Shown here: piece after piece, positions 28,221 to 44,337 of the stretch
How positions within the stretch are numbered: position 1 is the stretch's first letter
Layout: every line of letters starts with the position of its first letter
Source of the DNA: Kiritimatiellia bacterium
GTDB lineage: Bacteria > Verrucomicrobiota > Kiritimatiellia > RFP12 > JBMNHG01
NCBI GenBank assembly: GCA_050950285.1
Contig: JBMNHG010000006.1
Span: 105,167-169,166, forward strand
Reading direction: 5' to 3'
Length of the DNA stretch: 64,000 nt
The notes under the pieces: generated by a model
What the model was told of the DNA's origin: nothing
What the model saw: only the letters and a program-made list of their open reading frames with translations
Database searches by the model: none
Program-made: the position numbers and the translations under genes

Positions 28221-29402
28221 ATGCTGCGACGACTGGGACGATTGCGACGGGGCCTGTGTGCGGCAGGGTGTCTGGAATGGTTCTTCCTTGCGCCGGCGGC
28301 GGGCGCCGGGACGCACTTGTCCGGCTGGGCCGACTTCGACGCGCTCGTCGCCGCGGAATACGGCGCGCTCTCGGCTTCGGCGCTCTGCTATCCGCCCGGC
28401 GGAATCCGTTTCGGCATCTCGCATCCGCCGGTTTCCTTCGATCCCGCCGCCTTTGCCGCCTTGACCAACGCGTCGCCGCCCCGGACGCTTGCCGGCGTCC
28501 CGGCCTGGCCGCTGCGCATCGTCGAGACCCAAAGCGCCTCCCGCGTCTGGATCGCAACCGCCGGCGGCCTTCCGGTGCGCACGAGCGCCGTGCCGGCCTA
28601 CGACCCGGAGGCGTGGTCGCGCGCGGCCTACGGGGATCCGCCCGGATGGCTGTCCGGCGCGGACCTGGAACGCTGGTACCGCGAACGCGCCCGCGACCGG
28701 ATCGAACTGGGGCTGACCCTGATTCCCGCCGACCGCTTCGACGAGTACCTGGAGAACCTCCGCTCGGCGGCCACCAACGGGCCGGCCGGCCCCTCCGCCC
28801 CCGTGCCCCCCGCCGACACCAACCGTGTCGCCTTCGCCCTCGTCGCGCCGTCGGATCCGGGCCGCTTCGGCTTCACCCTCTACACCCCCGGCGACCTGCC
28901 GGTGGACATCTTCACGCGGACGAACCCCGCCGCCGGGCCGCTCTGGAACTACGCCGGGACGGTGCAGGCCTCCGCCCCGTTCACCCCCGCCGCCGTGGCC
29001 GCGCCGCACGCCGCCCTCTTCCTCCTCTCCGCGCGCGGCGACATCGACACCGACGGCGACGGCATCCCCGACGGCATGGAACTGCTCCACTTCGGCACGG
29101 ATCCCCTGCTGTGGGACACCAGCGGCGGCGGCCTCTCCGACTGGGTCAAGATCTACCGCTACGGCCTCGACCCGCTCCTGCGCGACAGCGACGGCGACGG
29201 CTACCCCGACGACGAGGAACTGCTGGCCGGCACCGACCCCGCGCAGGCCACGCCCGGGGCGGCCTCCGGCGCCATCCGCTACTACCGCGACGCCGACGAC
29301 CGCCTCACGGCGGTCCATACAGGCATGGACGGCGGGGCGGCCACCGCCGCGCCCACCCCCGCCGGCAACCCCGCCGTGCTGCAGGAGAGGAGCGCGCCAT
29401 GA
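28221..29402 (+). CDS. RHS-associated accessory protein with thrombospondin type-3-like Ca-binding repeats and a terminal YD-like motif
   Basis: The ATG at 28221 follows the RBS aaaaggaag. The sequence contains DIDTDGDGIPDGMELLHFGTDPLLWDTSGGGLSDWVKIYRYGLDPLLRDSDGDGYPDDEELLAGTDP and ends in IRYYRDADDRLTAV. The stop overlaps the RHS start (ATGA). Confidence 0.6.
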   Translation: MLRRLGRLRRGLCAAGCLEWFFLAPAAGAGTHLSGWADFDALVAAEYGALSASALCYPPGGIRFGISHPPVSFDPAAFAALTNASPPRTLAGVPAWPLRIVETQSASRVWIATAGGLPVRTSAVPAYDPEAWSRAAYGDPPGWLSGADLERWYRERARDRIELGLTLIPADRFDEYLENLRSAATNGPAGPSAPVPPADTNRVAFALVAPSDPGRFGFTLYTPGDLPVDIFTRTNPAAGPLWNYAGTVQASAPFTPAAVAAPHAALFLLSARGDIDTDGDGIPDGMELLHFGTDPLLWDTSGGGLSDWVKIYRYGLDPLLRDSDGDGYPDDEELLAGTDPAQATPGAASGAIRYYRDADDRLTAVHTGMDGGAATAAPTPAGNPAVLQERSAP

Positions 29403-32400
29403 AGCTGAGACCGGCACCGCTCCTCGCCCTCCTGCTGCCGCTGGCCGTTGCGACTTCCGCAACCGGAACACCGGAATGGACCGGCTGGCGCGTCAGTGGT
29501 CCCCCGGCCGTGCCGCCGCCGACGACCGGCCCCGTCGTGCGCCCCCTGGCCATGCCGCCCTCCGCGCAACCACCCCTCGCCGTGGCTCCGGATGCGGTCG
29601 TCCCCTGCGGCGCGCCGCAGCCCGTGCCCGCCTCGGGCTGGACGCCGGAACTGCCGCAGAGCGTCCCGCCCGGCGACGGGGAGCTGATCGCCGAGACGGC
29701 GCGCGGCCTCGACTACAATTGGGCACGCTGCTACCTCTTCGTCCGCGACCACATCCGCTTCGCCCCCTCCCCCGGCATCCTGCGGGGCGCCGGGCGCACG
29801 CTGCTCGACCGCGAGGGCAACGCCGCCGACCAGGCGCTGCTGCTCGTGGCGCTGCTGCGCGCCTCGGGATACACCGCCACCCTGATGCACGTCGCGCCCC
29901 CCGCCAATGAATTCGACGGCGGCTTCCGCATCCCGCTCGGCGGCACGGCGGACGGCTACGACGCCGCCGCCTGGCTCGGCTGCGCCACCGGTTCCGCCAC
30001 CGGGACCTGGAGCGACGTGAGCGGGCTGCTCGCCGCCGCCGGCCTGAAGGCCTACTGCGTCGGCTCCGGCGACTCTCCCGCCGGCTACGACGTGCGGCTG
30101 GAGCACTACTGGGCCGGGATCGTGCTCGATGGCTACCTCTACTATCTCGACCCCTGCTTCAAGCCCCGCCGGATCACGCCTCACCGCGACATCCTCGCCG
30201 ATGCCGGATACAGCCGGAGCAGCCTGCTGGCCGCCGCCGGCGGCAGCATCGGCCCCAGCCATGTGCAGGGACTCTCGGCCGGCGCCCTCGGCGCGGCCCT
30301 CGACCAGCTCGCCGCCCGGCTCGCATCCACCTGGCACGCCGCCAACCCAGTGGCCGCGCCACGGGCCTTCATCGGCGGCGACTCGGTCGTGCCGCAGGAC
30401 ATCCACGAGGACGCCTACCCGTTCCACGGAACCGTGGAGGGAGAACCCATCGACTTCCTGACGCAGCCTGACTCCTGGAAGAACGACCGGCGCACGGCGC
30501 TGACCGTCACGCATGGCACGGCCTCGAAAACCCTCTGGCTCGACGAGGTCGCCACGCGGCACGTCTGGATATCCTACACCGACTCCCCCGGCCACGCCTA
30601 TCCCGGGGCCGTCCTGCACGTGGACGACGAGACCGTGCTGGCCGAGTCCGCCGGCTCCGCGCAGGCCGCCGTGACCCTGACCCTGGCCGTCGACCATGCG
30701 TACCCGGACGCCAGCATGTCGGCCCCCTACGACCTCGTCCGCGCCACCACCAACACCTACGTCATCGTCCTCGGCATGGGCGGCGACCATCCCGGCGGCA
30801 TGCGCGCCTGGGCCGCCACCGAACTGGCGCGGGCCCGCGCCGCGGACGGAACCGGCGTGGCAACGCGCGCCCGCGCCCTCCAGTCCGTGGGCCAGCAGTG
30901 GCTGGCGCAGACCGCCCTTGTCAGCGACCTCGCCGGCCGCCTCGGCGGGGTACGCCGGGGCTTCTTCTACAACATCGGCATCGCCGGACAGTCCGGCTCG
31001 CCCTATGTCGACCTCAAGAACTGCTTCACCTACACGGCCGGCGATGCCTCGCGTTTCGGCGGCTACATGCTCTTCGGCAGCGCGCTCGAGCACGCCGTGC
31101 TCGACCAGGTCAACGCCCCGGACGCGCCCGCCGTCTCCACCGTGCGCATCCTCGCCCTGGCCAACGCCGCCGGCACGCCCGTCCACTTCGCCAACCACGG
31201 CAACTACGCCGCGACCGTGCGCCCGCTCCTCGCCAACTACCCGGCCGCGCAGCTCGACGCCTTCGCCACCGCCCTGGCGGCGGGCGGCACACTGCTGCTG
31301 CCCCGTGACGGCACCACCGTCCTCAACCAGTGGCAGGGCACGGGCTGGATCGAGCACGGCCCCTCCGGAGACACCTGGTCCACCGGCATGATCATCTCCG
31401 GCGGTCTGGCGGGCGGCTTCACCTCCAGACCCGGCGATGTCGATCCCGACGCCGTGGACAACGCCCACCAGCCCGCCCGCAACGACAACGCCGCCACCGC
31501 CAAGGAAAGAGCCGCCGACCCCGTCGAGCAGCCCTCCGGAGCCTACGTCTCCGAACACGCCGATCTCGTCATGGCGGGCCCCGCGCCGCTGGCCTGGACG
31601 CGCCACTACGACTCCCGCCGCCGCTTCGACGACGGCCCGCTCGGGCGCGGCTGGACACACGGCCTCGACGCCGCCGTCGTGCGCCACGCCGACCCCGACG
31701 CCCGCTTCGGGCGCGCCGCGCCCGAAGCCGCCGCCCCGACCGCCCTGGCCGTCGCCGTGGCCGACGACCTGCTCGCGGAGCAGGGCACGCTCCCCGCCGG
31801 GGAGGAGGCCCGCCGCCGCACCCTCGCGGCGCTGGTCGCGCAGTGGTGGACGGAACGGCTCACCGGCGGCACGGCCTCGGTACGCCTCGGCGCGCGCGCC
31901 CTGGCCTTCCAGCGCCGCCCCGGCGGCACCTACGCCGCCGCCCCCGGCGTCACCGCCACCCTCGCCGAGACCAACGGCCTCTTCACCCTCGCGGAGCGCC
32001 TCGGCGACACCTACGCCTTCGACGCCGCCGGACGCCTGGCGTCGGTCACCGACCGCTCCGGCAACGCCGTCACGCTGCACTACGGCGCGCAGGGTCGCCT
32101 CGCCGCCGTCTCCAACAGCTTCGGGCGCGCCCTCTCCGTGGGGTGGACCGGCGACCGCATCACTTCAGTCTCCGACAGCGCCGGACGTGCCGTCGCCTAC
32201 GCCTACGACGCCTCCGGACACCTCACCCGCGCCACCGACGCCGCCGGGTTCGCATGGACCGCCTCATACGCGCCCGACGGCGCGCTCCTCTCGCAGACCG
32301 CCCCCGGCGGACACACCACCATCCGCAACTTCTACAACGGCCTCGGCCAGGTCGTCCACCAGATCTCCGCCGCCGGACAGCCGTGGGTCTTCGGCTACGC

Positions 32401-35400
32401 CGCCGGAACCCGCTCATGGGACGCCGACCCCCACGGCCGCCGCGAGGTGCGCGGGCACGACGACGAGGGACGTGTCGTCACCCGCCTCCGCCGCGACGGC
32501 ACGCAGCACGACTACCTCCACGACGGCCACGGACGCCTGACCGCCCACATCGATCCCCTCTCCCGCATCAACCTCTTCGAGTACGACGCCCACGACCGCC
32601 TCGTCCGCTCCGTCCTGGCCGCCAACACGCCCGAGGCCCGCGCCACCGCCTTCGCCCACGACCACCTCCACCGCGTCACCGCCGTCACCAACGCCCTCGG
32701 CCTTGCGACCACCTTCGCCTACGACGACCGCGACCGCCTGATCCTGACGACCTTCCCAGACGGGAGCGCCCTCTCCGGCACCTGGACCGCCGCCGGCCTG
32801 CGCGCCACCGAGACGCTCCTCGACGCCGCCGGACGCACCCTGCGCCACACCACCTTCGCATACGACGGCGGCGGGCGTCCCGCCACACAGACCACGCAGG
32901 GCCGCGGCCTGCCGTCCCCCGTCACCACGGCCACCGGATTCGACGCCGCCGGCAACCTCGTGCGCGCCGAGGACGCCAACGGGCATGTCACCCGCTTCCG
33001 GTACGACGCCCGCGGCCTTCTCACCAACACCACCGATGCCGCCGGACACACTGTCCGCCGCACCTACGGCCCGCGCGGGATGCCCGCCGCCGTCACCGAC
33101 CCCCTCGGGCGCACCACCAGCCTCCTCTGGACGCCATCCGGCGAGCCCGCCGCCGTCCAACTGCCGGACGGCTCGCTCACGACCAACACGTACGACGCCG
33201 TCGACCGCCTGGCCTCCTTCACCGACACGCGCGGCACATGCGTCAGCCTCGACCGCGACGCCGCCGGGCGCATCACGCGCCGCCACACCCCCCGCTGGGA
33301 GGAGCGGACGTGGTACGACACCGCCGGCTGCGCCACCTCCGTCCTCGATGCCGCCGCCGTGCGCACGGACTACGGCCACGACTGGCTCGACCGCCCGGTG
33401 CTGGCGGTAGACGGACTGGACCGCGGCTGGTGGACGGCCTACGACGCCCTGGACCGCGTCACCGCCACCACCGATCCGCGCGGGCGCAGCCGCCAATACA
33501 CCCACGATGCCCTCGGACGCCGCACCGCCGCCATCCGCCCATCCGGCGCGACCGATTCCTTCGGCTACGACGCTCTCGGCAACTGGACCACCCACACCAA
33601 CGCCGAGGGGCGCGTCTATACCATGTCCTACGACGCCCTGTCGCGCCCCCTCGCCGCCACCAACGCCCTCGGTCAGCAGGCCTTTCTCAACGCCTACGAC
33701 CCCGCCGGCAACCTCACCAACCGCGCCGACGGCGCGGGCAACACCGTCCGCTACACCTACGACGCCCTCGACCGGCTGGTGGCGCGGGATGCCTTCAACC
33801 ACGAAGGGCACGAAAAACACGAAACCTTTACCTACGATGCGGTCGGTAATCTCCTGACCGCCTCGAACGAAACGGCATGCCTCTCATTCACCTACGACGT
33901 GATGGACAGGCTGGCCACCGCCACGACCGTCCTCTCAAATGCCACCTTCACCGCCGCCTACGCCCGCGACGCGGGCGGGCTGGTCACCAACCTGGTCTAT
34001 GCCCCCGGCAAAAGCGTTGCGCGCAGCTACGATGCCGACGGGCTGCTCGCGACGGTCAGCGACTGGCTCGGCCACACGTGGCACTTCGCGTGGGACGGCG
34101 CGGGCAAGCCTACCGGCGGCACGTCGCCCGGCGGCATCGCCGCCACCAACCGCTACGACGCGGCGGGGCGTCTCGCATCGTGGTCGGTCGGCACACTGGC
34201 CGGACGCACCGTCACCCGCGACGCGGCGGGACTCAAGACCCGCGAGGATATCACCGCCGGGCCGCACCCCGCGCCTGCCTTCGTGCGCTACGCCACCAAC
34301 ACCTTCGACGCCGCCGACCGCCTGGTGTCGGCCTCTGTGCGCTACGGCTCGCACACCAACGCCCCCGTTGCGGAGACCTACCTCTACGACGGCAACGGCG
34401 CCCTGACCAGCCTCGTATCCGGTTCAAACAGCGTCTTCACCGCCGCCTACTCCCCCCTCGGCCAGCTCTCCTCTCTGCGTCTCTGCGCCTCTGCGTTAAA
34501 CCACTCCTACGATCCCCTCGGCAACCGCCTCATCTCCGGCGAACGCCTCTTCATCCCCGACCATGCCGACCCCCTCAAGCGTCCGCTGATGGAGTGTGAC
34601 CTGTCCGGCAACGTCCTGCGCTACTACCTCTGGGCACCCGGACGGCTGCTCGGCTTCATAGACGCCGCTTCCGGCGCCCTCACCGTGGCCCACTGCGACG
34701 AGTACGGCTCCGTCGTGGCCCTCACCGACGAGGCCGGCAATACGCTCCACACCGCCTGCTACGGCCCGAATGGTCAGGACTGGGGCGCCACCGGCGCCAA
34801 TCCCACGCCCTTCGCCTGGCTTGGCGGGCATGGTGTTCAATGTGTCGCCGTTTCAGAACACCTCGGCCCGCTCTATCTCACCCGTCACCGTCTCTACAGT
34901 GCCAGTCTCCAGCGCTTCCTCTCGCCCGACCCCCTCGGCCTTGCCGGCGGTCTCAACCTCTACGCCTACGCCGAGGGCGACCCGCTCAGCTACATCGACC
35001 CGCTGGGGTTGTGCGGGGAGAGTGTTCTGGGCGCGGCGGCAAGAGGGTTTCTTGAGGGTTTGGGTGGCGGTTTGTCCATCATCGCCAACACGTTTAGTTT
35101 CGGCATGACGGATAGGCTCGGCTTGACGGATTCGGCGTCCTACGAGGGCAGCGAATACACGGTCTCGCGCGTCGCTTCAACAATCGCCCGCGAAAGCGCG
35201 ATCACCGCCGCGACGCTCGGTATCGGCACAGCGGCGCGCAGTGGCTCCGCCGCCGCCCAGACCGCCTACAAGGGCATTCTGGCGGTAGAGGCGGCAACGG
35301 GCGGCTGGCAGTTCGGAACCGGCGCATGGCAACTCTCCGAGGGCGATTACGAGGCGGGCGCCCTGAACATGGCTGCCGGCGGCCTTCGCGTCGGGGGCAG

Positions 35401-35707: not shown

Positions 35708-36285
35708 GCAAGAAACGAGTTACCGACCGAGCTCTTCTTCGCTTTACTGATGAAGTTAAAGCCCGTTTTGCCTTTCTAGAAGCACGAGGCTTTAACTGTG
35801 TCAGCACCGACGTAACGCTTGTGCGATTCGAGTCGCCAGAACTCGGCGTCAACATTTTCCATGGGCGGCAATCATACGAGATTGGACTTGAACTTGAATC
35901 ATTAGTGTCGAAGACTGAGAAATATTCCTTCTCTGAACTTCTTCGCCTTGTCGATCAGGAGCGAGCCGAGTGCTACAGATCGTTTGCCGCGACGAACGCC
36001 GAGGGAGTAGCCGAAGGAGTGCGTCAGTTGGCGGATAGTGTTCAACAGTGTATCGCTGCCGGTCTCTTGGATGATACCGAACTCTTTTCACGTCTCAAAC
36101 GGCAACGTCATGATCTAACCAAAAAACTCTCTCTGGATGTCCAACTCCAGCACGCTCGACGAAAAACTGAAGCTGCCTGGCATACCAAAGACTACGCAAC
36201 AATAGTAAGAATCATGAAACCTCTGCGTACGTATCTTTCGGCGTCTGAAGTTGCAAAGCTGGAGTTTGCCGAGAAGCATATCTGA
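35704..36285 (+). CDS. Putative cognate immunity protein of the main RHS toxin
   Basis: The ATG overlaps the RHS stop (ATGA). It has no signal peptide, is AT-richer than the genome, and occupies the position typical of an immunity gene. Sequence starts MSKKRVTDRALLRFTDEVKARFAFLEARGF... Confidence 0.6.
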   Translation: MSKKRVTDRALLRFTDEVKARFAFLEARGFNCVSTDVTLVRFESPELGVNIFHGRQSYEIGLELESLVSKTEKYSFSELLRLVDQERAECYRSFAATNAEGVAEGVRQLADSVQQCIAAGLLDDTELFSRLKRQRHDLTKKLSLDVQLQHARRKTEAAWHTKDYATIVRIMKPLRTYLSASEVAKLEFAEKHI

Positions 36286-36400
36286 ACCCTCTGTTTTAAT
36301 CGTTCGCCGGAATTAAATGTTGTCATCTTGCCGCAATCATTTAGATGAAGCGAGTGCCTCGCATCACGCTTCGTCACTCGCTGATGACTTTAGTATGATG

Positions 36401-36690: not shown

Positions 36691-36712
36691 AGCTAGCAGA
36701 GAGGAATTATGA
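36407..36712 (+). CDS. Truncated orphan RHS fragment 1: signal-peptide leader plus about two YD repeats, then a premature end
   Basis: MQQVSHRHVTHHIAALVAAIVLPFAVLAYAPLPSDASV...FTYDPVGNLTNRADGAGNTVRYAYDALDRLVARDAFGHDGHQ. It is homologous to the main RHS at about 33700-33800. Alternative in-frame ATGs lie at 36395 and 36398. Confidence 0.6.
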   Translation: MQQVSHRHVTHHIAALVAAIVLPFAVLAYAPLPSDASVSPARVTVSTAPVSDGFTYDPVGNLTNRADGAGNTVRYAYDALDRLVARDAFGHDGHQASREEL

Positions 36713-37344
36713 AGGAAATCGCCCGATTGGAACAAAACGCGCTCTTCAAGGGAAAGCGCCTGTTCATTTTGCAGGACGATGGACACTTGAAAGTCTACTC
36801 GTCATACGGGGGGCGAAAGCAGGAGTTCTTGGTCGATATTGGCCGCCTCAACCCGGAGCCCTTCCGTGATTCGATGTCGGCCAGGCTTTTTATTGCAATC
36901 TTATGTTTTTTTGCGTTGTTGTCGATCTTGTTTGCTGTTCTCATTATCTTGCGTTGGCCAGAACTGGATGCGGATGCCAAGCTAGTTCTTTTTTTGGCTT
37001 TAGGTGTGTTCGGCTTTGGAGCTTTGCTATGCTGGCGCGAGTATCTGCGACAGAGCTACGACACCTATGCTTTTCACGACGTATTCACGGGACAAAGCAT
37101 CATTTTTCTGGCAAATATTCCGTCGGAAGACCTCTTCATGGATTTTGTCAGCAAGCTGCAAGCCGAAATTCGTTCTATACAGAAGCGAAACGCATCTGCC
37201 GCAAGGCTGTCGCTGGTGGAACAGATCGAAGAGCTCGGAAGGCTGAAAGCAGAAGGCTTACTGGATGACGAGGAGTTTGCCAGGGCTAAAAGCAACCTCA
37301 TTGAAGCCTCGCGACTGCCAGCGGCCATAGGGTTCAAACCTTAA
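36709..37344 (+). CDS. Membrane protein with a C-terminal SHOCT-like domain (possible orphan immunity protein)
   Basis: Two TM helices (LFIAILCFFALLSILFAVLIIL, LVLFLALGVFGFGALLCW) and the C-terminal LVEQIEELGRLKAEGLLDDEEFARAKSNLI. ATGA overlap with the upstream fragment. Confidence 0.6.
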   Translation: MKEIARLEQNALFKGKRLFILQDDGHLKVYSSYGGRKQEFLVDIGRLNPEPFRDSMSARLFIAILCFFALLSILFAVLIILRWPELDADAKLVLFLALGVFGFGALLCWREYLRQSYDTYAFHDVFTGQSIIFLANIPSEDLFMDFVSKLQAEIRSIQKRNASAARLSLVEQIEELGRLKAEGLLDDEEFARAKSNLIEASRLPAAIGFKP

Positions 37345-37408
37345 TTGCATTGCTGATTGAACTGTAACAGAAGAATAGAACCATGAAGAACAATCTAGCA
37401 CGGAATTA

Positions 37409-39541
37409 ATGAGGACTTTCGCATACGTCAACAAGGCGAGATATTCCGCGCTAGCCATAATGCTAGTTGCGGTCTTTCCGGTATTTGCTTCTCTTCCGAG
37501 ATACGGCTTTCTAGACACCGATGCCGAGGTCGTCCGTTCCCACAGCGCGGGTAACACGGTACGCTACGCCTACGACGCGCTCGACCGGCTGGTGGCGCGG
37601 GATGCCTTCAACCACGAAGGGCACGGAAAACACGAAACCTTCGCCTACGATGCCGTCGGCAACCTGCTCGCTGCCTCCAATGAAGTGGCGCGCCTGTCGT
37701 TCAGCTACGACGTGATGGACCGGCTGGCCACCGCCACGACCGTTGTTTCAAACGCCACCTTCACCGCCGCCTACGCCCGCGACACGGGCGGGCTGGTTAC
37801 CAACCTCGTCTATGCCCCCGGCAAAAGCATCGCGCGCACCTACGACGCCGACGGGCGGCTCGCGACCGTCTCCGACTGGCTCGGCCACACGTGGCACTTC
37901 GCGTGGGATGGCGCGGGCAAGCCCACCGGCGGCACGTCGCCCGGCGGCATCGCCGCCACCAACCGCTACGACGCGGCGGGGCGTCTCGAATCGTGGTCGG
38001 TCGGTACGCTGGCCGGACGTACCGTCACCCGCGACGCGGCGGGGCGTCTCGAATCGTGGTCGGTCGGTACGCTGGCCGGACGTACCGTCACCCGCGACGC
38101 GGCGGGGCTCAAGACCCGCGAGGATATCACCGCCGGACCGCACCCGGCCCCTGCCTTCGTGCGCTACGCCACCAACACCTTCGACGCCGCCGACCGCCTG
38201 GTGTCGGCGCAGGTGCGGTACGGCTCGCACACCAACGCCGCCGTCTCCGAGACCTACCTCTACGACGGCAACGGCGCTTTAACAAGCCTCGTATCAGGCT
38301 CAAACACCATCTTCACCGCCACCTACTCCCCCCTCGGCCAGCTCTCCTCACTTTTCGTGCCTTTCGTGCCTTTCGTGGTTGAATGCACCTACGATCCCCT
38401 CGGCAACCGCCTCATCTCCGGCGACCGCCTCTTCATCCCCGACCATGCCGATCCCCTCAAGCGCCCGCTGATCGAGGCCGACGCCGCCACCGGCGCGCCG
38501 CTGCGCTACTACCTCTGGGCGCCCGGACGCCTGCTCGGCTTCATAGACGCCGCTTCCGGCGCGCTCACCGTGGCCCACTGCGACGAATACGGCTCCGTCG
38601 TGGCCCTCACCGACGAGGCCGGCAACACGTTACACACCGCCTGCTACGGCCCCAACGGTCAGGACTGGGGCGCCACCGGCGCCAACCCCACCCCCTTCGC
38701 CTGGCTCGGCGGGCATGGTGTGCAGCAGGTCGCCGTTTCAGAACACCTCGGCCCGCTCTACCTCACGCGCCACCGCCTCTACAGCGCCAGTCTCCAGCGC
38801 TTCCTCTCACCCGACCCCCTCGGTCTCGCAGGCGGTTTGAACCTCTACGCCTACGCCGAGGGCGACCCGCTGAGCTACATCGACCCGCTGGGATTGTGTC
38901 CTGAAAACAACTATTGGGAGACAGGCAGTTACCTCGGAGACGTCGGGCAGTTCGTTGCGGGTTACGGTGATGCTATTGCAGGTACGGTCGGTGGTCTCTA
39001 CAATGTTGTGCGCCATCCGATACAGACGGCGGCGGGATTGTTCAACGCTGTTGCTCATCCCGTACAGACAGCCCAGGCTATGGCCGATGGCATAGCCGAA
39101 ACATGGGACAGCGGGAACAGGGGGCGCGGCCAGATCGTCGGCAACACCTTGATCATAGCCGCAACCATCGCCGCACCGCATGCAAAGACAAGTAGCATAG
39201 CGAAAACAGCAAATGCTGCGAAAAGCGGACAAACGTTTGAAATTATTGATGGCGTTCGTAGAGCGAAAGCAGCACAGTCTCTTGGAAAACAGAGTGTGGC
39301 CGCTAATATCTTTAATGCAGATGGCCAGCTTATCGGTCAAGGCAACATTCCAATTAGAGCTTTGACTTCGCCAAACAAGTCGGTAATTGATATGTCCACG
39401 CAAGCCCAATTCGACCGATACATGAGTATCCAGCGTGGTTTGCAAGAGGGTGCAAGTTTACCGCCAATTTCAGTAACGCCTGGTAGTCGTGGCATTCCTG
39501 TCTCAGATGTCATTTTCGACGCAATTGGAGCAGCACAGTGA
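37409..39541 (+). CDS. Orphan RHS C-terminal module 2: own signal-peptide leader, ~450 aa of YD-repeat shell plus RHS core, alternative toxin tip with a ParB/Srx-fold motif
   Basis: MRTFAYVNKARYSALAIMLVAVFPVFASLPR is the leader. Positions 37540-38895 are about 90 percent identical by eye to the main RHS at 33735-35010, including DPLSYIDPLGL. The sequence then diverges, and the tip contains FEIIDGVRRAKAAQSLGKQSVAANIF. Confidence 0.85.
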   Translation: MRTFAYVNKARYSALAIMLVAVFPVFASLPRYGFLDTDAEVVRSHSAGNTVRYAYDALDRLVARDAFNHEGHGKHETFAYDAVGNLLAASNEVARLSFSYDVMDRLATATTVVSNATFTAAYARDTGGLVTNLVYAPGKSIARTYDADGRLATVSDWLGHTWHFAWDGAGKPTGGTSPGGIAATNRYDAAGRLESWSVGTLAGRTVTRDAAGRLESWSVGTLAGRTVTRDAAGLKTREDITAGPHPAPAFVRYATNTFDAADRLVSAQVRYGSHTNAAVSETYLYDGNGALTSLVSGSNTIFTATYSPLGQLSSLFVPFVPFVVECTYDPLGNRLISGDRLFIPDHADPLKRPLIEADAATGAPLRYYLWAPGRLLGFIDAASGALTVAHCDEYGSVVALTDEAGNTLHTACYGPNGQDWGATGANPTPFAWLGGHGVQQVAVSEHLGPLYLTRHRLYSASLQRFLSPDPLGLAGGLNLYAYAEGDPLSYIDPLGLCPENNYWETGSYLGDVGQFVAGYGDAIAGTVGGLYNVVRHPIQTAAGLFNAVAHPVQTAQAMADGIAETWDSGNRGRGQIVGNTLIIAATIAAPHAKTSSIAKTANAAKSGQTFEIIDGVRRAKAAQSLGKQSVAANIFNADGQLIGQGNIPIRALTSPNKSVIDMSTQAQFDRYMSIQRGLQEGASLPPISVTPGSRGIPVSDVIFDAIGAAQ
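37607..37639 (+). repeat. In-frame cacgaa-type element in orphan module 2
   Basis: ttcaaccacgaagggcacggaaaacacgaaacc. Confidence 0.7.
37970..38095 (+). repeat. Perfect 63-bp tandem duplication (2 copies) inside orphan RHS module 2
   Basis: gacgcggcggggcgtctcgaatcgtggtcggtcggtacgctggccggacgtaccgtcacccgc occurs at 37970-38032 and again, identically, at 38033-38095. It duplicates DAAGRLESWSVGTLAGRTVTR. The main RHS has a single copy. Confidence 0.95.
38351..38383 (+). repeat. In-frame triple-tandem element (ctttcgtgc x3 + gttgaa) in orphan module 2. It is the inverted counterpart of the cacgaa-type element.
   Basis: cttttcgtgcctttcgtgcctttcgtggttgaa encodes LFVPFVPFVVE. Its reverse complement matches 37607-37639 at 27 of 33 positions. 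It occupies the position where the main RHS carries the ctctgcg element. Confidence 0.75.
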
Positions 39542-39786
39542 TTATTGAACAGAAGAAGATTGCGGCTATGAAAGCACTGCAATCCGTCATTATCCATGGT
39601 CGTATTATGGCTTACGAGAAGGCGGACTACAATAGAATAGCCGACCTGCTGGATCGCGCTGAATACTTAGCGGGTATGTTTTACGAGAATCGGGATATGA
39701 CGGTGACATTTCGAGAGAACTTGGTTGAAATTGCTGAACTTCACAATTGTGGAATCGCATTAACGCAATTTGACACAAATTGTTGA
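39538..39786 (+). CDS. Putative immunity protein for the ParB-fold toxin tip
   Basis: 82 aa. The GTG start overlaps the toxin stop (GTGA). It is AT-rich and has no signal peptide. Confidence 0.55.
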   Translation: MIIEQKKIAAMKALQSVIIHGRIMAYEKADYNRIADLLDRAEYLAGMFYENRDMTVTFRENLVEIAELHNCGIALTQFDTNC

Positions 39787-40119
39787 TTTTTCGGCAATTA
39801 CGATGAAAGCCTTGTTTTACGAGCTTTACGGGACTTTGACAATTCTGCCCTTCAAGGATCATTTTTCCAAGACGCATCTGTTTGGTATTGCACCCACAAT
39901 TGGACGAGTCGCGGCCAGAATTCATCGGTCTTGCGAAAGGCATTGCGTGACGGTTTCGAGATACACGATGCTTCCGCTCATAGACCGAATTGGTTCCCCA
40001 ATCCTACGTTGCTACGCCCTGATCGGACAGTTGGGCAGAGTTTCTTGGGCGCAGAGCGAAACATCTTGGACAATAAGGGTTTGATTTTGAGTTCCGACGG
40101 AATATATGTACCTAAGTGA
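39787..40119 (+). pseudogene. Start-less relic of a toxin tip homologous to the main RHS C-terminal domain
   Basis: The open frame directly after the stop at 39784-39786 reads FGNYDESLVLRALRDFDNSALQGSFFQDASVWYCTHNWTSRGQNSSVLRKALRDGFEIHDAS...VGQSFLGAERNILDNKGL. The main toxin reads KANWKQNSGVLRQEMNRGLPIRDAS...GGQFLNAERYLLRDRGW. There is no ATG before 39931. Confidence 0.6.
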
Positions 40120-40517
40120 AACCAATGAGCACAACCACGCAGAACGAGTTTGAATACCAGGTTCTCGCCTGTTTTCGGAAACACGCAAACACATTGCGTT
40201 TGTGTGAACCCACATTCAGGAGAGAGGGTTATGTCATTACCGCGACAATGTCGGCAGGGCCATCCGGGAAAGTAGAGCTTCGATATGGTCCTGCCGAGTA
40301 TGTTACTGAAATCTTTATCTACACATCGGCGGACAATAAACGATGGAGTTTGACTGACCTATTGAATAATGAGCAAATTCGCACTTGGATACTTAAAAAC
40401 AAACCGGATATGTCAGGTAGATCTCGTCTTGAGACAGAGATAACCTTTGCGTTTTCTCTTCTGAACGAAGGACTGGTAGATATTCCTGATTTCCACTGGT
40501 TGGCCAGTAAGGCGTGA
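40116..40517 (+). CDS. Putative immunity protein paired with the relic toxin tip (weakly resembles the 35704-36285 product)
   Basis: The GTG at 40116 overlaps the relic stop; an alternative ATG is at 40125. VELRYGPAEYVTEIFIYTSADNKRWSLTDLL compares with VNIFHGRQSYEIGLELESLVSKTEKYSFSELL in the first immunity protein. Confidence 0.55.
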   Translation: MKPMSTTTQNEFEYQVLACFRKHANTLRLCEPTFRREGYVITATMSAGPSGKVELRYGPAEYVTEIFIYTSADNKRWSLTDLLNNEQIRTWILKNKPDMSGRSRLETEITFAFSLLNEGLVDIPDFHWLASKA

Positions 40518-41290
40518 AGATGCAACGTGTTATCGCAGTTTGGCAACAGCTTGCGGCTACAACGATACAGGTCATCGCCGCGTTGTCTCTTTGCGCTACG
40601 ACACCTATGGTTCGTACTGCGGACTGCGGCGTGCATGATTGCTACCACAAATACACGTTCGCCGCCAGCCGGCCATCCGGCGCGGACAACAGCGTCGCCT
40701 ACCGGCCACCGCCATATACCCATCAGCCAAGCGGCGAACTGTACGACACGCTCCTCGATCCGCGCTCCCGCGCCCTGATGCATCAAAACATGCTGCTTCC
40801 CGAAGGCGCCATCGGCACCCCGCTTGGCGACCACATGGCCAAGAGCATGGTAGTGAACACGTTCACAGCTCCAGGCCTCGCCATCATCGGCGAAGGCATA
40901 TCAACAGCAGTGGGAAGGCTTTTCGGCGCGCCAAAGATAAACACTCCTCATGGCGTTGCCATTCAGTCTGGGACGCCGGAAGCTCAAGCCGCATTGCGAC
41001 AAGTCCAAAGTGGCACGACGGTCTATAGGCAGGGGCAACTTGGTTTTCAAAACACAGGGAATGCACAATACTGGTCTTTACAGAACCCCGCATCCACCCC
41101 CAATTACGCCAACCAAATGGGGATGCCTTCTGCCGCCGGTGGAGAGACGTGGATTATGGGGGGACAATTGAAACCCGGGAGTCCTGTCATCACGCGTCCT
41201 GCTCCAGCTATTCCCCCAAATGCTGGTGGAACCATTGAAGCTGTCACTCAACCCGGCGGGGTCAGCATTAACTGGTTCCATATGCCCTGA
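40514..41290 (+). CDS. Free-standing toxin-like protein (no RHS repeats) with an N-terminal hydrophobic segment; family unassigned
   Basis: GTGA overlap with the upstream gene; alternative ATG at 40520. The N-terminus is QQLAATTIQVIAALSLCATTP. The C-terminal ~110 aa read GTTVYRQGQLGFQNTGNAQYWSLQNPASTPNYANQMGMPSAAGGETWIMGGQLKPGSPVITRPAPAIPPNAGGTIEAV. Confidence 0.5.
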   Translation: MKMQRVIAVWQQLAATTIQVIAALSLCATTPMVRTADCGVHDCYHKYTFAASRPSGADNSVAYRPPPYTHQPSGELYDTLLDPRSRALMHQNMLLPEGAIGTPLGDHMAKSMVVNTFTAPGLAIIGEGISTAVGRLFGAPKINTPHGVAIQSGTPEAQAALRQVQSGTTVYRQGQLGFQNTGNAQYWSLQNPASTPNYANQMGMPSAAGGETWIMGGQLKPGSPVITRPAPAIPPNAGGTIEAVTQPGGVSINWFHMP

Positions 41291-41299
41291 GGAGTCAAA

Positions 41300-41689
41300 A
41301 TGCGTATGCCGTCGCAGATAATTACTAGATTGCTTGAAGGCGAACACTTCAATATGGATCAACGAAAGGCTTTAGGTCTTCTTCCTGCAGAGACTTTGAG
41401 CTATGCCGAGGTTCGAGACCATTTAGCACTTCTGCTTGCCGACCGAGAATGGTTCCCTGCTAAGCCTTCTGATTCACACAACACGGATGCGATTCACGAG
41501 GGCATCTTTATTCACCATGTCTCTCCAAACAGGTTCATTTGCTACGCCCGCCGAGCATCAACTGAAAATCCTCTTGTCCTAGCCGAGCAGTCAGCTTGCG
41601 AATTCGGATCGGCACGGGAAGCTGCGGATTACTATCTAAGATGGGAATTGAATCTTCCCGGCCGTTTGGATGGATGGGTCGTTGAGTAG
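41300..41689 (+). CDS. Small cytoplasmic protein, candidate immunity protein
   Basis: 129 aa. The RBS gaggag lies 6-11 nt upstream of the ATG. It is AT-rich and sits directly downstream of the toxin-like ORF. Confidence 0.5.
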   Translation: MRMPSQIITRLLEGEHFNMDQRKALGLLPAETLSYAEVRDHLALLLADREWFPAKPSDSHNTDAIHEGIFIHHVSPNRFICYARRASTENPLVLAEQSACEFGSAREAADYYLRWELNLPGRLDGWVVE

Positions 41690-41697
41690 GCGAACAT

Positions 41698-42057
41698 ATG
41701 ATGAGAAAAATTATGTATCACCCTTCTGATTTGCGCGGCGAAGAAATATCCGCCGTGTGTTTCGTGCGTGATTACGTGGAATTCCATTTTGATGGCGCGA
41801 TACTTCGCAGTCTATCGAATCCGATCATCTTGATTCAGGGCGTAGAACATCGCTTTCCTGAACCTGGTTCGCGTGATGCACTTTGTAAGCTTATCGGTTC
41901 AACGGTTGTAGATGTGACGTTGGAAGAGTTCCAAGCGTTGAAGGTGACTACGACAGACGGCTGCAAAATCACAATTCCACTTGACAACAGGCATCTTCGT
42001 GGTTCGGAAGCTATGCACTTCGTTCCCTACCTTAACGGGCCAATTCAAGTGTGGTAG
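41698..42057 (+). CDS. Small cytoplasmic protein, second candidate (orphan) immunity protein
   Basis: 119 aa, beginning 8 nt after the previous stop, with the same AT-rich composition. Confidence 0.45.
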   Translation: MMRKIMYHPSDLRGEEISAVCFVRDYVEFHFDGAILRSLSNPIILIQGVEHRFPEPGSRDALCKLIGSTVVDVTLEEFQALKVTTTDGCKITIPLDNRHLRGSEAMHFVPYLNGPIQVW

Positions 42058-42140
42058 CTCGCTGACACCCATAGTTCGACAAATGATATTGTCGGTTATG
42101 ATTGGAAGTTTTGCTATTCATTGAGTCTCTAACAGTTTAT

Positions 42141-42430
42141 ACAGATATGCAACAGGCATCGCATAGGCATGTAAAGCATTGCGTCGCAGCATTTGTTGCG
42201 ACGATAGTGCTGCCTTTTGCCGTTCGAGCCTATGCACCTTTGCCATCCGATGCTTCGGTTTCACCGGCTCGCGTCACTGTAAGCACAGCACCAGTTAGTG
42301 ATGGTTTCACCTACGACCTCGCCGGCAACCTCACCAACCGCGCCGACGGCGCGGGCAACACGGTACGGTACGCCTACGACGCCCTCGACCGGCTGGTGGC
42401 GCGGGACGCCTTCAACCACGAAGGGCACGA
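42141..42430 (+). repeat. Dispersed repeat copy B (orphan leader plus first YD repeats)
   Basis: See copy A. Both begin acagatatgca(g/a)cagg. Confidence 0.9.
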
Positions 42431-42761
42431 AAAACACGAAACCTTTACCTACGACGCGGTGGGGAATCTGCTGACCGCCTCTAATGATGCGGCGCGCCTC
42501 TCGTTCAGCTACGACGTGATGGACAGGCTGGTCACCGCCACGACCGCCGTTTCCAACGCCACTTTCTCCGCCGCCTACGCCCGCGACGCGGGCGGGCTGG
42601 TCACCAACCTGATGTACGCCCTCGGCAAAAGCGTCACGCGCACCTACGATGCCGACGGGCGGCTCGCGACGGTCAGCGACTGGCTCAAACGCCCGCTTGC
42701 AAAATCACCACAAAAAGGCCACCATTTCACCGTGATTCAGAGAAATAGTTGGGGGCACTGA
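42147..42761 (+). CDS. Truncated orphan RHS fragment 3: same leader as fragment 1 plus ~150 aa of YD repeats. Homology is broken at 42686/42687.
   Basis: MQQASHRHVKHCVAAFVATIVLPFAVRAYAPLPSDASV...NHEGHEKHETFTYDAVGNLL...RTYDADGRLATVSDWL, followed by the unrelated tail KRPLAKSPQKGHHFTVIQRNSWGH. The ORF-track start at 42102 is a TTG. Confidence 0.6.
   Translation: MQQASHRHVKHCVAAFVATIVLPFAVRAYAPLPSDASVSPARVTVSTAPVSDGFTYDLAGNLTNRADGAGNTVRYAYDALDRLVARDAFNHEGHEKHETFTYDAVGNLLTASNDAARLSFSYDVMDRLVTATTAVSNATFSAAYARDAGGLVTNLMYALGKSVTRTYDADGRLATVSDWLKRPLAKSPQKGHHFTVIQRNSWGH
42411..42443 (+). repeat. In-frame cacgaa-type element in orphan fragment 3
   Basis: ttcaaccacgaagggcacgaaaaacacgaaacc, identical to 33794-33826. 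Confidence 0.7.
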
Positions 42762-42885
42762 AGAGTTGCGGGAGCAACTCGGCAAGAGGTTCATCACCGG
42801 GGTGGTGCTCTACACCGGCAACAATCTGATCCCGTTTGGCGACCAACTCTGGCTCGTGCCCCTGCCGGTCCTGTGGGCGCCGTAA
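42736..42885 (+). pseudogene. C-terminal stub of a DUF4143-type AAA+ ATPase (COG1373-like)
   Basis: FREIVGGTEELREQLGKRFITGVVLYTGNNLIPFGDQLWLVPLPVLWAP resembles the conserved C-terminus of that family. It has no start codon, and a stop lies immediately upstream in frame. Confidence 0.5.
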
Positions 42886-42914
42886 TCTTCCTTCATCCTG
42901 TTATACGAAAATCT

Positions 42915-42952
42915 CGAAAAGGCACCGCCCTGCTTTTTCGTTTGTTCAGTGT
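42915..42952 (+). repeat. 38-bp direct repeat, left copy (upstream of abiEi)
   Basis: cgaaaaggcaccgccctgctttttcgtttgttcagtgt. It differs from the copy at 44000-44037 at about 4 positions. Confidence 0.8.
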
Positions 42953-42992
42953 AATAGTTGCTTTTAATCAGCAAATACGATAACTTGAGGCA

Positions 42993-43628
42993 ATGAATTT
43001 TGAGAAATTGGTAGCATTGGTTGCTGACGAGCCGGTTTTTTCGTCCAGCCTTTTGTTGTCCGGGATGGCGGATCCGCAGCGGCTGCGGTTGCAGTTGTCG
43101 CGCTGGGTGAAGGCCGGGCGGCTGCATCAGATCCGCCGCGGACTGTATGCCCTGGCACCGCCGTGGCGCAAGGTCGAGCCGCACCCGTTCCTGGTTGCCA
43201 ACAGCCTCCGGCGCGGAAGCTATGTGAGCCTGCAATCCGCACTGGCATGGCATGGGGTCATTCCCGAACAGGTGCCGGTGGTCACCAGCGTGGGGCCCGG
43301 GCGTCCCGGAACGACGACCACCCCGCTCGGCGCTTTTCAGTACCGCTATCTTGCCGAGGAGTTGCGGTTCGGTTTTACGCGAATCGAGGTTGCTCCCCGC
43401 CAGTTCGCCTTTATGGCATCGCCGGAGAAGGCGCTGCTCGATTTGGTTCACCTGACCCCCGGTGCGGACTCGGAAGCATTTCTCCGGGAGCTGCGTCTAC
43501 AAAACCCGGGGGTATTCCAGCCTGCGGAGCTTGGGGAACTGGCCCGGCGCAGCGGGAAACCCAAGCTCGTGAGGGCATCCCGAATGATCCGCACGTTGCT
43601 GGCCGAAGAGGAGGGGGTGCCCTTGTGA
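42993..43628 (+). CDS. AbiEi-family type IV toxin-antitoxin antitoxin / transcriptional regulator
   Basis: LRLQLSRWVKAGRLHQIRRGLYALAP...PFLVANSLRRGSYVSLQSALAWHGVIPEQV is typical of AbiEi_4. Confidence 0.75.
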   Translation: MNFEKLVALVADEPVFSSSLLLSGMADPQRLRLQLSRWVKAGRLHQIRRGLYALAPPWRKVEPHPFLVANSLRRGSYVSLQSALAWHGVIPEQVPVVTSVGPGRPGTTTTPLGAFQYRYLAEELRFGFTRIEVAPRQFAFMASPEKALLDLVHLTPGADSEAFLRELRLQNPGVFQPAELGELARRSGKPKLVRASRMIRTLLAEEEGVPL

Positions 43629-43631
43629 AGG

Positions 43632-43967
43632 ATGGTTTACGACAAGGCTTCGCTTTTCGCAGGCAAGCTGCATGCCGTACTGAGCCGCAAATGGACCAAA
43701 GGGCGCGATCTTTACGACCTTGCCTGGTACTTGGCGGACCGCCACTGGCCCGCGCCGAATCTCGACCAGCTCAATGCCGCCCTGGCCCAGACCAGCTGGG
43801 AAGGGCCGACGCTGACCGCTGCCAACTGGCGGAGCGAATTGGCCCGGCGGCTTGAAGCCGTTGAGTGGGAGCGCGCACGCGCGGACGTCAGTCCCTTCCT
43901 GGAACGGACTTCCGACATCGACTTGGTTTCGGCCGAAACATTGGGCAAGTTGCTGGAAGCCCCCTGA
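43632..43967 (+). CDS. AbiEii/AbiGii nucleotidyltransferase toxin, C-terminal 111 aa only (N-terminal catalytic half missing)
   Basis: ASLFAGKLHAVLSRKWTKGRDLYDLAWYL matches the C-terminal region of AbiEii. The gene begins 3 nt after the abiEi stop and is far shorter than the family norm. Confidence 0.6.
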   Translation: MVYDKASLFAGKLHAVLSRKWTKGRDLYDLAWYLADRHWPAPNLDQLNAALAQTSWEGPTLTAANWRSELARRLEAVEWERARADVSPFLERTSDIDLVSAETLGKLLEAP

Positions 43968-43999
43968 AGGAGTAAATGAGTGCCTTACGGATCGACAAG

Positions 44000-44037
44000 C
44001 GAAAAGACGCCGCCCCGCTTTTTTGTTTGTTCAGTGT
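44000..44037 (+). repeat. 38-bp direct repeat, right copy (downstream of the truncated abiEii)
   Basis: cgaaaagacgccgccccgcttttttgtttgttcagtgt. Confidence 0.8.
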
Positions 44038-44158
44038 GTTTCGTGGTTCATACGAACCCCAAAAACCCTTGGCGTTCTTGGCGTCTCGGCAGTTCAAAAA
44101 AAACCGATCCATGCCACTCAAAAAACCTCTACGTCTCTGCGCCTCTGCGTTAAATTAC
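44027..44158 (+). repeat. Intergenic cluster of three short tandem-repeat elements of the same style
   Basis: The three elements are gtgtgtttcgtggttca, ccttggcgttcttggcgtctcggcagttcaaaaaaaa, and ctctacgtctctgcgcctctgcgttaaattac. Confidence 0.7.
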
Positions 44159-44337
44159 TAACTCGGCCACAATTCATACTGCAACACAGGGAACGGTTTT
44201 CCAACCCGTGACACGGACAGGAATGTCCGTGCCCCTTTCCCGACTCCAAATTCCAGCTCCTCATGCCTGAATCTCCGTGAGCAGCGCTATTTGTGGCCGG
44301 GTTCGTAAACCGCCTGGGATCTCGATGGCCGTCGTGG

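Follow-up and report, generated by a model that had tools for sequence, protein, structure and literature searches.

The 64-kb window analysed here, a stretch of 64,000 nucleotides from a Kiritimatiellia bacterium, carries an RHS polymorphic-toxin locus at 28221–42761. Our analysis shows that one operon joins a secreted partner with TSP3 (thrombospondin type 3) repeats to an intact RHS protein having a standard Rhs shell, plug and protease core. It also shows that the tip of this protein is bipartite, with a shared N-terminal part and an exchangeable toxin domain, and that the cognate immunity gene comes next. An array of further toxin and immunity cassettes follows. An earlier description of the same DNA made from its letters alone, hereafter the sequence-only reading, had placed the locus at 28221–44260, and the toxin-locus observation itself was confirmed almost item by item.

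The rhs operon and its TSP3-repeat partner

The operon comprises the following features, with positions in the protein given in amino acids (aa).

28119–28148, plus strand: promoter-like site (TTGACA, 18 nt, TATGCT; 10 of 12 matches), about 70 nt 5′ of the partner gene
28221–29402, plus strand: partner gene, 393 aa, a separate gene whose stop overlaps the RHS start (ATGA)
29399–35707, plus strand: main RHS toxin gene, 2102 aa, a single uninterrupted open reading frame (ORF)
aa 1–21 of the main RHS protein: signal peptide, with the charge, hydrophobic core and small-residue pattern of one
up to about aa 700: N-terminal region of the main RHS protein
about aa 100–251 (29696–30151): inactive transglutaminase-like domain
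aa 707–765 (31517–31693): DUF6531 plug (Pfam E 1.6e-14)
ending at aa 1871 (35011): Rhs core with DPxG-X19-DPxG (NCBIfam Rhs_assc_core TIGR03696, E 6.1e-16, aa 1825–1871)

The sequence-only reading had described a 2102-aa RHS protein with a Sec signal, a YD-repeat shell, a core and a 231-aa tip, and both the coordinates and the Pfam and NCBIfam matches agree with it. The YD shell matches Pfam RHS_repeat in 10 stretches (E 6.6e-92) and NCBIfam YD_repeat_2x TIGR01643 (E 8.3e-72), with the first YD repeats lying about 100 aa beyond the plug. DUF6531 is the N-terminal plug of Rhs shells, and DPxG-X18/19-DPxG is their aspartyl-protease motif (PMC10684867). In our protein this core motif takes the form SPDPLG-X19-DPLGL, with D1845 and D1868 as its two aspartates by our count, and the 231-aa tip follows directly; the tip would be freed by autocleavage at this point. 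A TTG start at 28157 was also considered for the RHS frame, but the 414 codons that it would add are Arg/Pro-rich and overlap the partner gene out of phase, and we regard them as noncoding.

The N-terminus of the main protein, MKLRPAPLLALLLPLAVATSA followed by TG, reads as a Sec signal by its composition; all signal-peptide calls reported here were made by sequence pattern rather than with a dedicated predictor. Comparable signal peptides occur in nearly all RHS homologs (25 loci from GTDB genomes). The N-terminal 700 aa are rare, giving 12 matches in a word-indexed search. The region was found in 25 GTDB genomes, mostly from the Planctomycetes–Verrucomicrobia–Chlamydiae (PVC) group, with the best match in Lentisphaerae (87%) and others in Kiritimatiellia and Verrucomicrobia; distant copies occur in Defluviicoccus, Desulfobacterales, Methylococcaceae, Fibrobacter and Phycisphaerae. 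The GC-rich PVC host proposed by the sequence-only reading is borne out, since the best genome match is a Lentisphaerae metagenome-assembled genome and cluster mates are named Kiritimatiellia.

Within this region, the main RHS protein matches Transglut_core weakly and below the cut-off (E 0.004 and 0.0015), and the same domain matches 6 of the 10 aligned family members, the best at E 4.7e-17. The position of the catalytic Cys is occupied by A or D in all aligned members, within a G-N-x-x-DQA context (family alignment A1). The domain retains the EH.W motif and the D, and H236 and D251 are kept.

The partner gene fills 28221–29402, a part of its own range that the sequence-only reading had left undescribed. 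Its product starts with a signal-peptide-like stretch and continues with an N-domain that is about 270 aa long and matches no family, TSP3 calcium-binding repeats (Pfam TSP3_bac, E 3.2e-14) and a C-terminal tail (about 29264–29399). Exact-sequence look-ups of the RHS protein, of the downstream orphan and of a partner homolog from Kiritimatiellia gave no recorded match. A partner homolog lies directly 5′ of the RHS homolog in 15 loci and is the sole neighbour conserved across the 25 related loci. The 4-nt ATGA overlap of the two genes, judged from coordinates, is kept in at least 9 of the 15. The best-conserved part of the partner is its last ~45 aa, ...IRYYYDxDDRLxG...sPAGN.....ERSAP at the stop. 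A profile of ten partner tails aligned with the RHS protein’s own YD repeats at an hhalign probability of 82% (E 1e-5, 34 of 38 columns). We therefore suggest, with low to moderate confidence, that the partner may bind the RHS protein through a YD-like hairpin and thereby add a calcium-dependent surface attachment or target-binding function.

The promoter-like site at 28119–28148 is a candidate for the operon promoter. Such sites are no more numerous in the region than in shuffled sequences, which leaves this one as a lead only.

Two shell-related oddities touch the main gene. An in-frame scrap of an intergenic repeat, CGTCTCTGCGCCTCTGCGTTAAA (LRLCASALN), occupies 34478–34500 and is identical to the intergenic copy at 44132–44154; at the same codon position, the downstream orphan (38354–38380) and the main gene of a close relative (L002) hold TTCGTGCCTTTCGTGCCTTTCGTGGTT (FVPFVPFVV). 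The reverse complement of this second motif encodes NHEGHEKHE (minus-strand sense) at 33797–33814, 37610–37627 and 42414–42431. Such scraps may point to a shell loop that is prone to recombination or insertion.

Toxin domains, immunity genes and cassette turnover

The tip of the main gene and the modules after it are as follows.

35012–35704, plus strand: tip 1, 231 aa, with a Gly-rich N-part (aa 1–137) and a 94-aa C-terminal toxin domain (35423–35704)
35704–36285, plus strand: tip 1 immunity gene (imm1), 193 aa, with an ATGA overlap with the RHS stop
36317–36712, plus strand: truncated rhs fragment A (RHS_repeat E 1.3e-8)
36709–37344, plus strand: membrane protein with a SHOCT domain, 211 aa (Pfam E 1.8e-6, aa 171–197)
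37409–39541, plus strand: orphan rhs-CT (C-terminal rhs module), 710 aa, with its own ATG, a signal-peptide-like leader, the last ~450 aa of the shell, the core and tip 2
38897–39538, plus strand: tip 2, with a weakly ParB-like toxin domain
39538–39786, plus strand: candidate tip 2 immunity gene, 82 aa, with a GTGA overlap
39787–40119, plus strand: relic toxin domain, 110 open codons lacking both an ATG and any upstream rhs part
40116–40517, plus strand: candidate relic immunity gene (imm3), 133 aa, no family match
40514–41290, plus strand: free-standing small polymorphic toxin (ORF258), 258 aa, with a GTGA overlap with the preceding gene
41300–41689, plus strand: ORF258 immunity gene (imm4), 129 aa
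41698–42057, plus strand: orphan immunity gene, 119 aa, its cognate toxin missing from the window; weak DUF6188 match (E 0.019)
42102–42761, plus strand: truncated rhs fragment B (RHS_repeat E 3.3e-19), with the leader of fragment A and about 375 nt of shell homology

All of the downstream ORFs named by the sequence-only reading are present, all lie on the plus strand, and the 4-nt overlaps that it reported are real (29399, 35704, 36709, 39538, 40116 and 40514). Its array of about 9 kb holds as an array of orphan toxins and immunity genes, with the correction that the rhs-derived part measures about 7 kb and that 42762–44260 is not rhs but AbiEi, an AbiEii fragment and repeat debris. The window has a GC content of about 70%; across the array the value falls from about 72% to about 50%, and the stretch from 35 to 43 kb has 48–58%; the base composition of the spare downstream cassettes is foreign. 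No tRNA gene was found, and the array thus offers no integration landmark.

The Gly-rich N-part of tip 1 is common to other RHS tips. Its toxin domain has more than 100 homologs at 60–86% identity, invariably at the C-terminus of their carriers, which include RHS, PT-HINT and other proteins in Proteobacteria and beyond. An exhaustive search at E ≤ 1e-3 collected 951 clusters (50% identity), with carriers that include plain RHS proteins, a Peptidase_C39-RHS protein and an SpvB/TcdB/FG-GAP-RHS protein (P0173). The ORF directly after a tip 1-type rhs-CT in Pseudoxanthomonas (L029) is 38% identical to imm1 over its full length (E 4e-39), and imm1 itself matches no Pfam or NCBIfam family. As judged from this recurrence, tip 1 and imm1 represent a genuine predicted toxin/immunity pair family.

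The toxin domains of tip 1, tip 2 and ORF258 have no sequence match in Pfam, NCBIfam or the PDB, which upholds the statement of the sequence-only reading that at least three tips are unassigned. Single-sequence PDB searches of the three toxin regions returned no match, and profile searches of the PDB with alignments A2 and A4 matched only the Rhs core of full-length members, not the toxin domains. The AlphaFold2 model of the tip 1 domain is a small alpha/beta fold (predicted local distance difference test score, pLDDT, 82.8; predicted template modelling score, pTM, 0.71), for which Foldseek found no structural neighbour in the PDB (best E 0.7). The domain has no histidine; its near-invariant polar residues are R22, D25, E33, N53, R58, D69, S71 and the N81-A-E-R84 motif.

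The relic at 39787–40119 is a divergent member of the tip 1 family. A hidden Markov model (HMM) of tip 1 homologs matches it at E 8.9e-6 over HMM positions 43–89; BLASTP against tip 1 is not significant, and the relationship is visible by the family HMM only. The product of the next gene, imm3, is 97% identical to that of an ORF in the close relative L002, where just 30 nt of the relic remain. Its position and this conservation make it a candidate immunity gene. No similarity was detectable between imm1 and imm3, though their toxins are related.

Tip 2 holds EIIDGVRRAKAA and matches ParB_N weakly over aa 111–141 (IIDGVRRAKAA; E 0.13, 12.7 bits against a cut-off of 26.3), so that a ParB relation is only a hint. 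Its toxin domain also occurs on another RHS-associated protein (P0029). The short gene that follows, 39538–39786, has no homolog and no family match and is by position a candidate immunity gene. A chimeric query made of tip 2 and four immunity proteins returned 3 proteins, its 8000 word-sharing candidates being dominated by noise.

ORF258 combines a hydrophobic N-terminal leader module (aa 1–135) with a 125-aa C-terminal toxin domain (40913–41287). The same C-domain sits at RHS C-termini elsewhere (P0068, P0086 from Luteolibacter, and P0095) and on an rhs orphan in the relative L001. In L002, the N-terminal 144 aa of ORF258 are kept and, past a frame shift, are followed by a Pfam TNT NADase domain (E 1e-12). 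Thus, ORF258 is itself polymorphic. The AlphaFold2 model of its domain (pLDDT 77, pTM 0.72) found its best Foldseek match, which is not significant, in Tne2, a NADase of type VI secretion (type VI system, T6SS; 6b12, TM-score 0.47–0.49, E 1.1). Fungal TNT-like NADases and pertussis-like ADP-ribosyltransferases (PltA) came next, all at E > 1. The model gives a weak hint that the domain may be an NAD-directed enzyme. An invariant R, an invariant E and a WFHMP motif are present in the domain.

The pairing of this toxin with imm4 recurs in an unrelated small metagenomic contig (L031), where the toxin is 89% and the immunity protein 85% identical and the two genes are again adjacent; imm4 is also 99% identical in L001. 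The ORFs after more distant toxins of the same type in two further loci (L030 and L032) are unrelated to imm4, and the pairing is therefore limited to the close subfamily. The sequence-only reading had grouped two small ORFs with the free-standing toxin. Both are present, and the second, 41698–42057, is instead an orphan immunity gene: its product is 91% identical to the protein encoded after the main RHS tip of L002, with a 4-nt overlap there, which places its cognate toxin on the L002 main RHS protein.

The orphan and both fragments match RHS_repeat, and their DNA is 87–93% identical to the 3′ part of the main gene. For the orphan this identity covers 37534–38896 against 33721–35011, as seen also in DNA repeat families D1, D4, D5 and D10 (main gene 33721–34020, 34156–34455 and 34616–34915 against orphan copies starting at 37534, 38032 and 38501; 87–93%). 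On this identity, the shared 3′ repeats are a predicted substrate for tip displacement by recombination. A perfect 63-nt tandem duplication in the orphan (37969–38094) doubles a 21-aa YD strand (AAGRLESWSVGTLAGRTVTRD) of which the main gene has one copy (34156–34218).

Fragment A consists of a 170-nt, signal-peptide-like leader not derived from rhs (36401–36570) followed by about 120 nt of rhs homology, which ends at the NHEGHEKHE site; it is probably a pseudogene. Repeat family D6 links it to fragment B (36401–36691 is 92% identical to 42141–42431). Fragment B, which is 90% identical to the main gene over 42338–42637 (main gene 33721–34020), breaks off at about 42686 and is a pseudogene. The SHOCT protein between fragment A and the orphan has a strongly hydrophobic segment from aa 67.

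The sequence-only reading likened the orphans to the cassettes of Enterobacteria. Orphan rhs-CT/rhsI arrays are known from Salmonella, Dickeya, Serratia and Enterobacter (PMC4436062), and as an array the comparison is sound: in both cases a main rhs gene and its immunity gene are followed by orphan modules that keep 3′ core homology, a tip swap by recombination is possible, the cassettes have foreign GC, and the proteins share the DUF6531 plug and aspartyl-protease core. The enterobacterial proteins differ in having no signal peptides and in leaving by the T6SS with the help of PAAR, VgrG and chaperones, whereas our protein has a Sec signal and the long ORFs sampled in the window include no T6SS gene. 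Moreover, the window orphans have their own start codons and hydrophobic leaders, and one free-standing cassette is not rhs-derived.

These leaders raise the possibility of independent expression, by which the orphans would differ from the start-less enterobacterial ones. In that case the downstream array would be no silent reserve, and the orphans and ORF258 would be expressed alone as small toxins exported by Sec. A start codon, basic residues and a hydrophobic stretch open the orphan at 37409, both fragments and ORF258; their 15-residue Kyte–Doolittle maxima are 1.9–2.9 (2.88 in fragment A) against 2.0 for the RHS signal peptide. Similar leaders occur on the L001 orphan, on three tandem Pseudoxanthomonas rhs-CT ORFs starting MAALLWLGISLAAHAQ and on 5 of the 23 short rhs-CT proteins among the database matches. 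The N-module of ORF258 stays constant while its C-domain varies between genomes, and each copy of the shared leader has weak promoter-like hexamers in front of it. However, a shell that is only partial cannot close around a toxin, tips are missing altogether from fragments A and B, promoter-like sites are no commoner here than in shuffles, and most of the short rhs-CT ORFs sampled have no such leaders. We regard independent expression as conceivable and worth keeping in mind, though on balance improbable.

The comparison across related genomes shows cassette turnover, for which the sequence-only reading had proposed to look: the same cassettes recur in other orders and on other carriers in L001, L002 and L031. 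Both L001 (a JGI contig, 92.6% identical in DNA over 28107–35427) and L002 (an ENA contig) are close relatives. In the L001 main gene, the part shared with tip 1 runs only as far as 35427, where the N-part ends, and a different toxin comes after it; Imm32, DUF4304, a transposase and an orphan bearing an ORF258C-type toxin are found in its array. The L002 main gene ends in a third toxin domain, to which the N-part of the window’s tip 2 is fused. Two levels of exchange follow from this, one at the core and the other where the N-part of the tip meets its toxin domain. In L031 (1–1232), an rhs-CT ends in Pfam Ntox10 (E 4.2e-42) and is followed by Imm27, directly after which come the ORF258C-type free-standing toxin and its immunity gene. 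The Ntox10/Imm27 pair has been listed for RHS toxins with transglutaminase domains in Bacteroidetes and Verrucomicrobia (Zhang et al. 2012, PMC3482391).

The main RHS protein of L002 is shorter (1138 aa). Position 10438 of that contig joins what corresponds to window positions 30292 and 32692, a shortfall of about 2.4 kb: missing are the DUF6531 plug, the N-domain’s C-terminal half before it and the first YD repeats after it. This is either a deletion derivative or an assembly collapse; the locus holds masked runs of N.

Delivery route and rival explanations

Long ORFs were sampled across the 64-kb window, which lies within a 536-kb contig. None of them encodes PAAR, VgrG, TcA or TcB, in agreement with the sequence-only reading, and PAAR, prePAAR, VgrG, DUF1795 and DUF4123 were likewise missing from the RHS protein and from the long ORFs sampled over 28 kb on its 5′ side and 20 kb on its 3′ side. 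The sampled ORFs are of housekeeping or envelope type (HtpG, MetH-like, RsmB, glycosyltransferases, GH5, MatE and acyl-CoA ligase-like). The TcB-type domains SpvB, TcdB_mid and FG-GAP gave no Pfam match in the RHS protein, the partner or their neighbours, nor did NHL or FN-plug in the RHS protein or the partner.

A conventional T6SS-delivered Rhs effector, whose PAAR, VgrG and chaperone genes would lie outside the window, deserves consideration because most characterised diderm Rhs toxins are T6SS effectors (PMC4436062), because plugs of the DUF6531 type are known from T6SS Rhs proteins (PMC10684867), and because the search was confined to 64 kb. Three findings speak against it. First, both the RHS protein and its partner carry a cleavable-looking Sec signal that is kept in nearly all homologs; T6SS loading is cytoplasmic, and the conserved signal therefore argues for Sec export. 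Second, none of the PAAR, prePAAR, VgrG, DUF1795 or DUF4123 components appears in the protein or the sampled ORFs. Third, the sole conserved neighbour in 25 related loci is the TSP3 partner. We consider T6SS delivery extremely unlikely.

The locus also invites comparison with ABC (Tc) toxins and with teneurin-like proteins. Like TcB/TcC, it encodes a predicted YD cocoon with an aspartyl-protease core around a variable C-terminal toxin, and it has two adjacent genes with YD-type sequence. Sec-exported YD-shell toxins are represented by WapA and, since 2026, by bacterial teneurin-like proteins (PMC13018210). As a class, both resemble what is predicted for our protein: they are Sec-dependent surface toxins with a YD shell, C-terminal autoproteolysis and adjacent immunity genes, and in both, N-terminal adhesion-type modules set the mode of display (PMC13018210; PMC12704120). 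WapA (Bacillus/Streptococcus) differs in acting in monoderms, whereas the window protein must cross or sit in the outer membrane. Teneurin-like proteins have an FN-plug, an NHL propeller and a YD shell and have not been reported from PVC phyla; our protein has a DUF6531 plug and no NHL match, a comparison made for its N-terminal region at the level of domain matches.

One could thus picture a split Tc-like or teneurin-like cocoon directed at eukaryotic cells or serving adhesion, with the partner in the role of TcB. The YD-type sequence in both genes fits this picture, as do the TSP3 repeats and transglutaminase-like domain (typical adhesion modules), the presence of a tip 1-type toxin domain on the SpvB/TcdB/FG-GAP protein and the Sec export of teneurin-like shells. 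Against this, the Pfam comparison found none of the Tc-type and teneurin-type domains named above, and the long ORFs sampled in the window include no TcA; the ~100-aa gap between plug and YD repeats is too small for a propeller; TcB builds half of the shell, whereas the partner supplies one YD unit at most; and Tc components have no Sec signal. Unlike the ABC toxins, the locus has immunity genes: a small cognate ORF follows every toxin, and orphan immunity genes are kept, which is the mark of cells protecting themselves from a toxin that works in bacteria. We judge this alternative to be very unlikely.

A closer counterpart has long been on record. Zhang, de Souza, Anantharaman, Iyer and Aravind (2012) described inactive transglutaminase domains placed directly behind a signal peptide, with RHS repeats next, filed them in the class secreted by the type II secretion system or Sec and proposed a role in anchoring at the cell surface (PMC3482391). 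The sequence-only reading had implied that the Sec signal and transglutaminase-like N-terminus were an unexplored arrangement; that claim is overstated, and the locus is not categorically new, its architecture having been in the literature since 2012. The likeness extends from the signal peptide, the transglutaminase-like domain with a broken triad (here through loss of the Cys), the RHS repeats and the variable C-terminal toxin to the downstream immunity genes and solo cassettes, the Verrucomicrobia among the listed hosts and the Ntox10/Imm27 pair of L031. The differences are that the window’s toxin domains fall outside the named families and that the text of Zhang et al. has no match for “thrombospondin” or “TSP3”, from which it follows that the upstream partner was apparently not described there. 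That class is known in silico only. No paper connecting Rhs with “thrombospondin type 3” came up in a literature search, and a search for Kiritimatiellae with Rhs returned nothing. Three points appear to go beyond the searchable literature: the conserved TSP3/YD partner, the leader-bearing orphans, and the widespread and structurally orphan toxin domain.

Every testable defining feature of RHS polymorphic toxins and of the Sec-class inactive-transglutaminase subgroup is present here. In its proteins and in the long ORFs sampled, the locus departs from the definitions of teneurin-like proteins, Tc BC components and T6SS Rhs effectors. We therefore favor, at a probability of roughly three in four, an RHS polymorphic-toxin system with toxin/immunity cassettes that is interbacterial, belongs to the Sec-dependent inactive-transglutaminase RHS class and resides in a PVC host of Kiritimatiellia or Lentisphaerae type.

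Several points weigh against this interpretation. The Transglut_core score of the window protein is 19.3 bits against a Pfam cut-off of 23. The YD-like tail of the partner rests on one profile comparison of low-diversity alignments, and RHS_repeat is sub-threshold in the tails (E 0.03–0.04 in 2 of 10). Two confident toxin models, those of tip 1 and ORF258, have no significant fold match. The T6SS search reached the 64-kb window alone, so that a T6SS could lie elsewhere in the genome, and no outer-membrane export component was linked to the locus. More generally, secretion, surface display, toxicity and protection are predicted from homology and gene order.

If the favored interpretation of a Sec-dependent interbacterial system is correct, the RHS protein and its partner would pass the inner membrane via Sec, and the RHS protein would wrap its autocleaved tip in a cocoon. 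The calcium-binding partner, together with the transglutaminase-like N-domain that lacks the Cys, would hold or present this cocoon at the cell surface, which might be reached by type II secretion or another outer-membrane route, and the partner may dock through its terminal YD hairpin. Upon contact, the tip would be released and its N-part would ferry the toxin domain into the neighbouring bacterium, while the immunity protein would shield sister cells. Homologous recombination between the main gene and the orphan at 37409–39541 would put tip 2 with its immunity gene in the place of tip 1 and imm1; the short fragments A and B and the relic could be decay products of past swaps.

A bolder proposal would make the TSP3 partner and the inactive-transglutaminase RHS protein an undescribed, T6SS-independent, two-component delivery module of PVC bacteria. 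The YD hairpin would complete or clamp the shell as a minimal analogue of the TcB/TcC split, the calcium-binding repeats and N-domain would serve display or target recognition, and the orphans would be independently expressed small toxins. We find this proposal, taken as a whole, doubtful.

The locus is of interest for several reasons. Delivery by Rhs cocoons is understood only for T6SS and Tc toxins and in part for the monoderm WapA. The diderm Sec-dependent class, catalogued in 2012 from in silico work, is represented here and by relatives in about 25 PVC and other genomes as a compact two-gene module. The locus supplies three toxin/immunity pairs absent from family databases, and the tip 1 domain, with its 951 clusters, is among the more widespread uncharacterised C-terminal toxin domains. 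Should the partner indeed dock on the shell, an Rhs toxin would be mounted here in a new manner; should it not, the locus would be a well-preserved but ordinary case of cassette turnover.

Island edge and flanking genes

Beyond fragment B lie two further genes.

42993–43628, plus strand: AbiEi antitoxin gene (Pfam AbiEi_4, E 8.2e-7)
43632–43967, plus strand: AbiEii toxin fragment (Pfam AbiEii, E 1.8e-10), covering only the C-terminal profile positions 135–229 of 238

These AbiE remnants are the edge of the low-GC island and stand outside the rhs system. A 38-nt direct repeat (family D15, 89% identical) brackets the pair at 42915–42952 and 44000–44037; it can form a stem-loop and is followed by a T-run. 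The arrangement suggests a small mobile unit that was either inserted at the island edge or kept there. Directly after fragment B, the frame at 42762–42885 reads through EELREQLGKRFITGVVLYTGNNLIPFGDQLWLVPLPVLWAP to a stop; by eye it resembles the C-terminal end of a DUF4143-type ATPase gene, and may be another gene remnant.

On the 5′ side of the operon are a gene with a prepilin-type N-methylation signal (25486–26067, plus strand, pseudopilin-like), an unassigned ORF (26072–27061, plus strand) and, separating these two from the rhs operon, a gene on the minus strand whose predicted secreted product has no family match (27086–28171). The pseudopilin-like gene was considered as part of a linked secretion system and set aside: a minus-strand gene intervenes, and such genes are common in PVC genomes. 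A gene with a GYF_2 domain lies about 5 kb 5′ of the rhs operon in the window (20957–23635, plus strand), and one of the same kind lies 3′ of the array in L002 (18056–19090). With this gene on opposite sides, the rhs locus occupies a rearranged or different chromosomal context in the two genomes. The start regions of the minus-strand gene at 27086–28171 and of the partner gene abut, leaving a very short divergent control region common to both.

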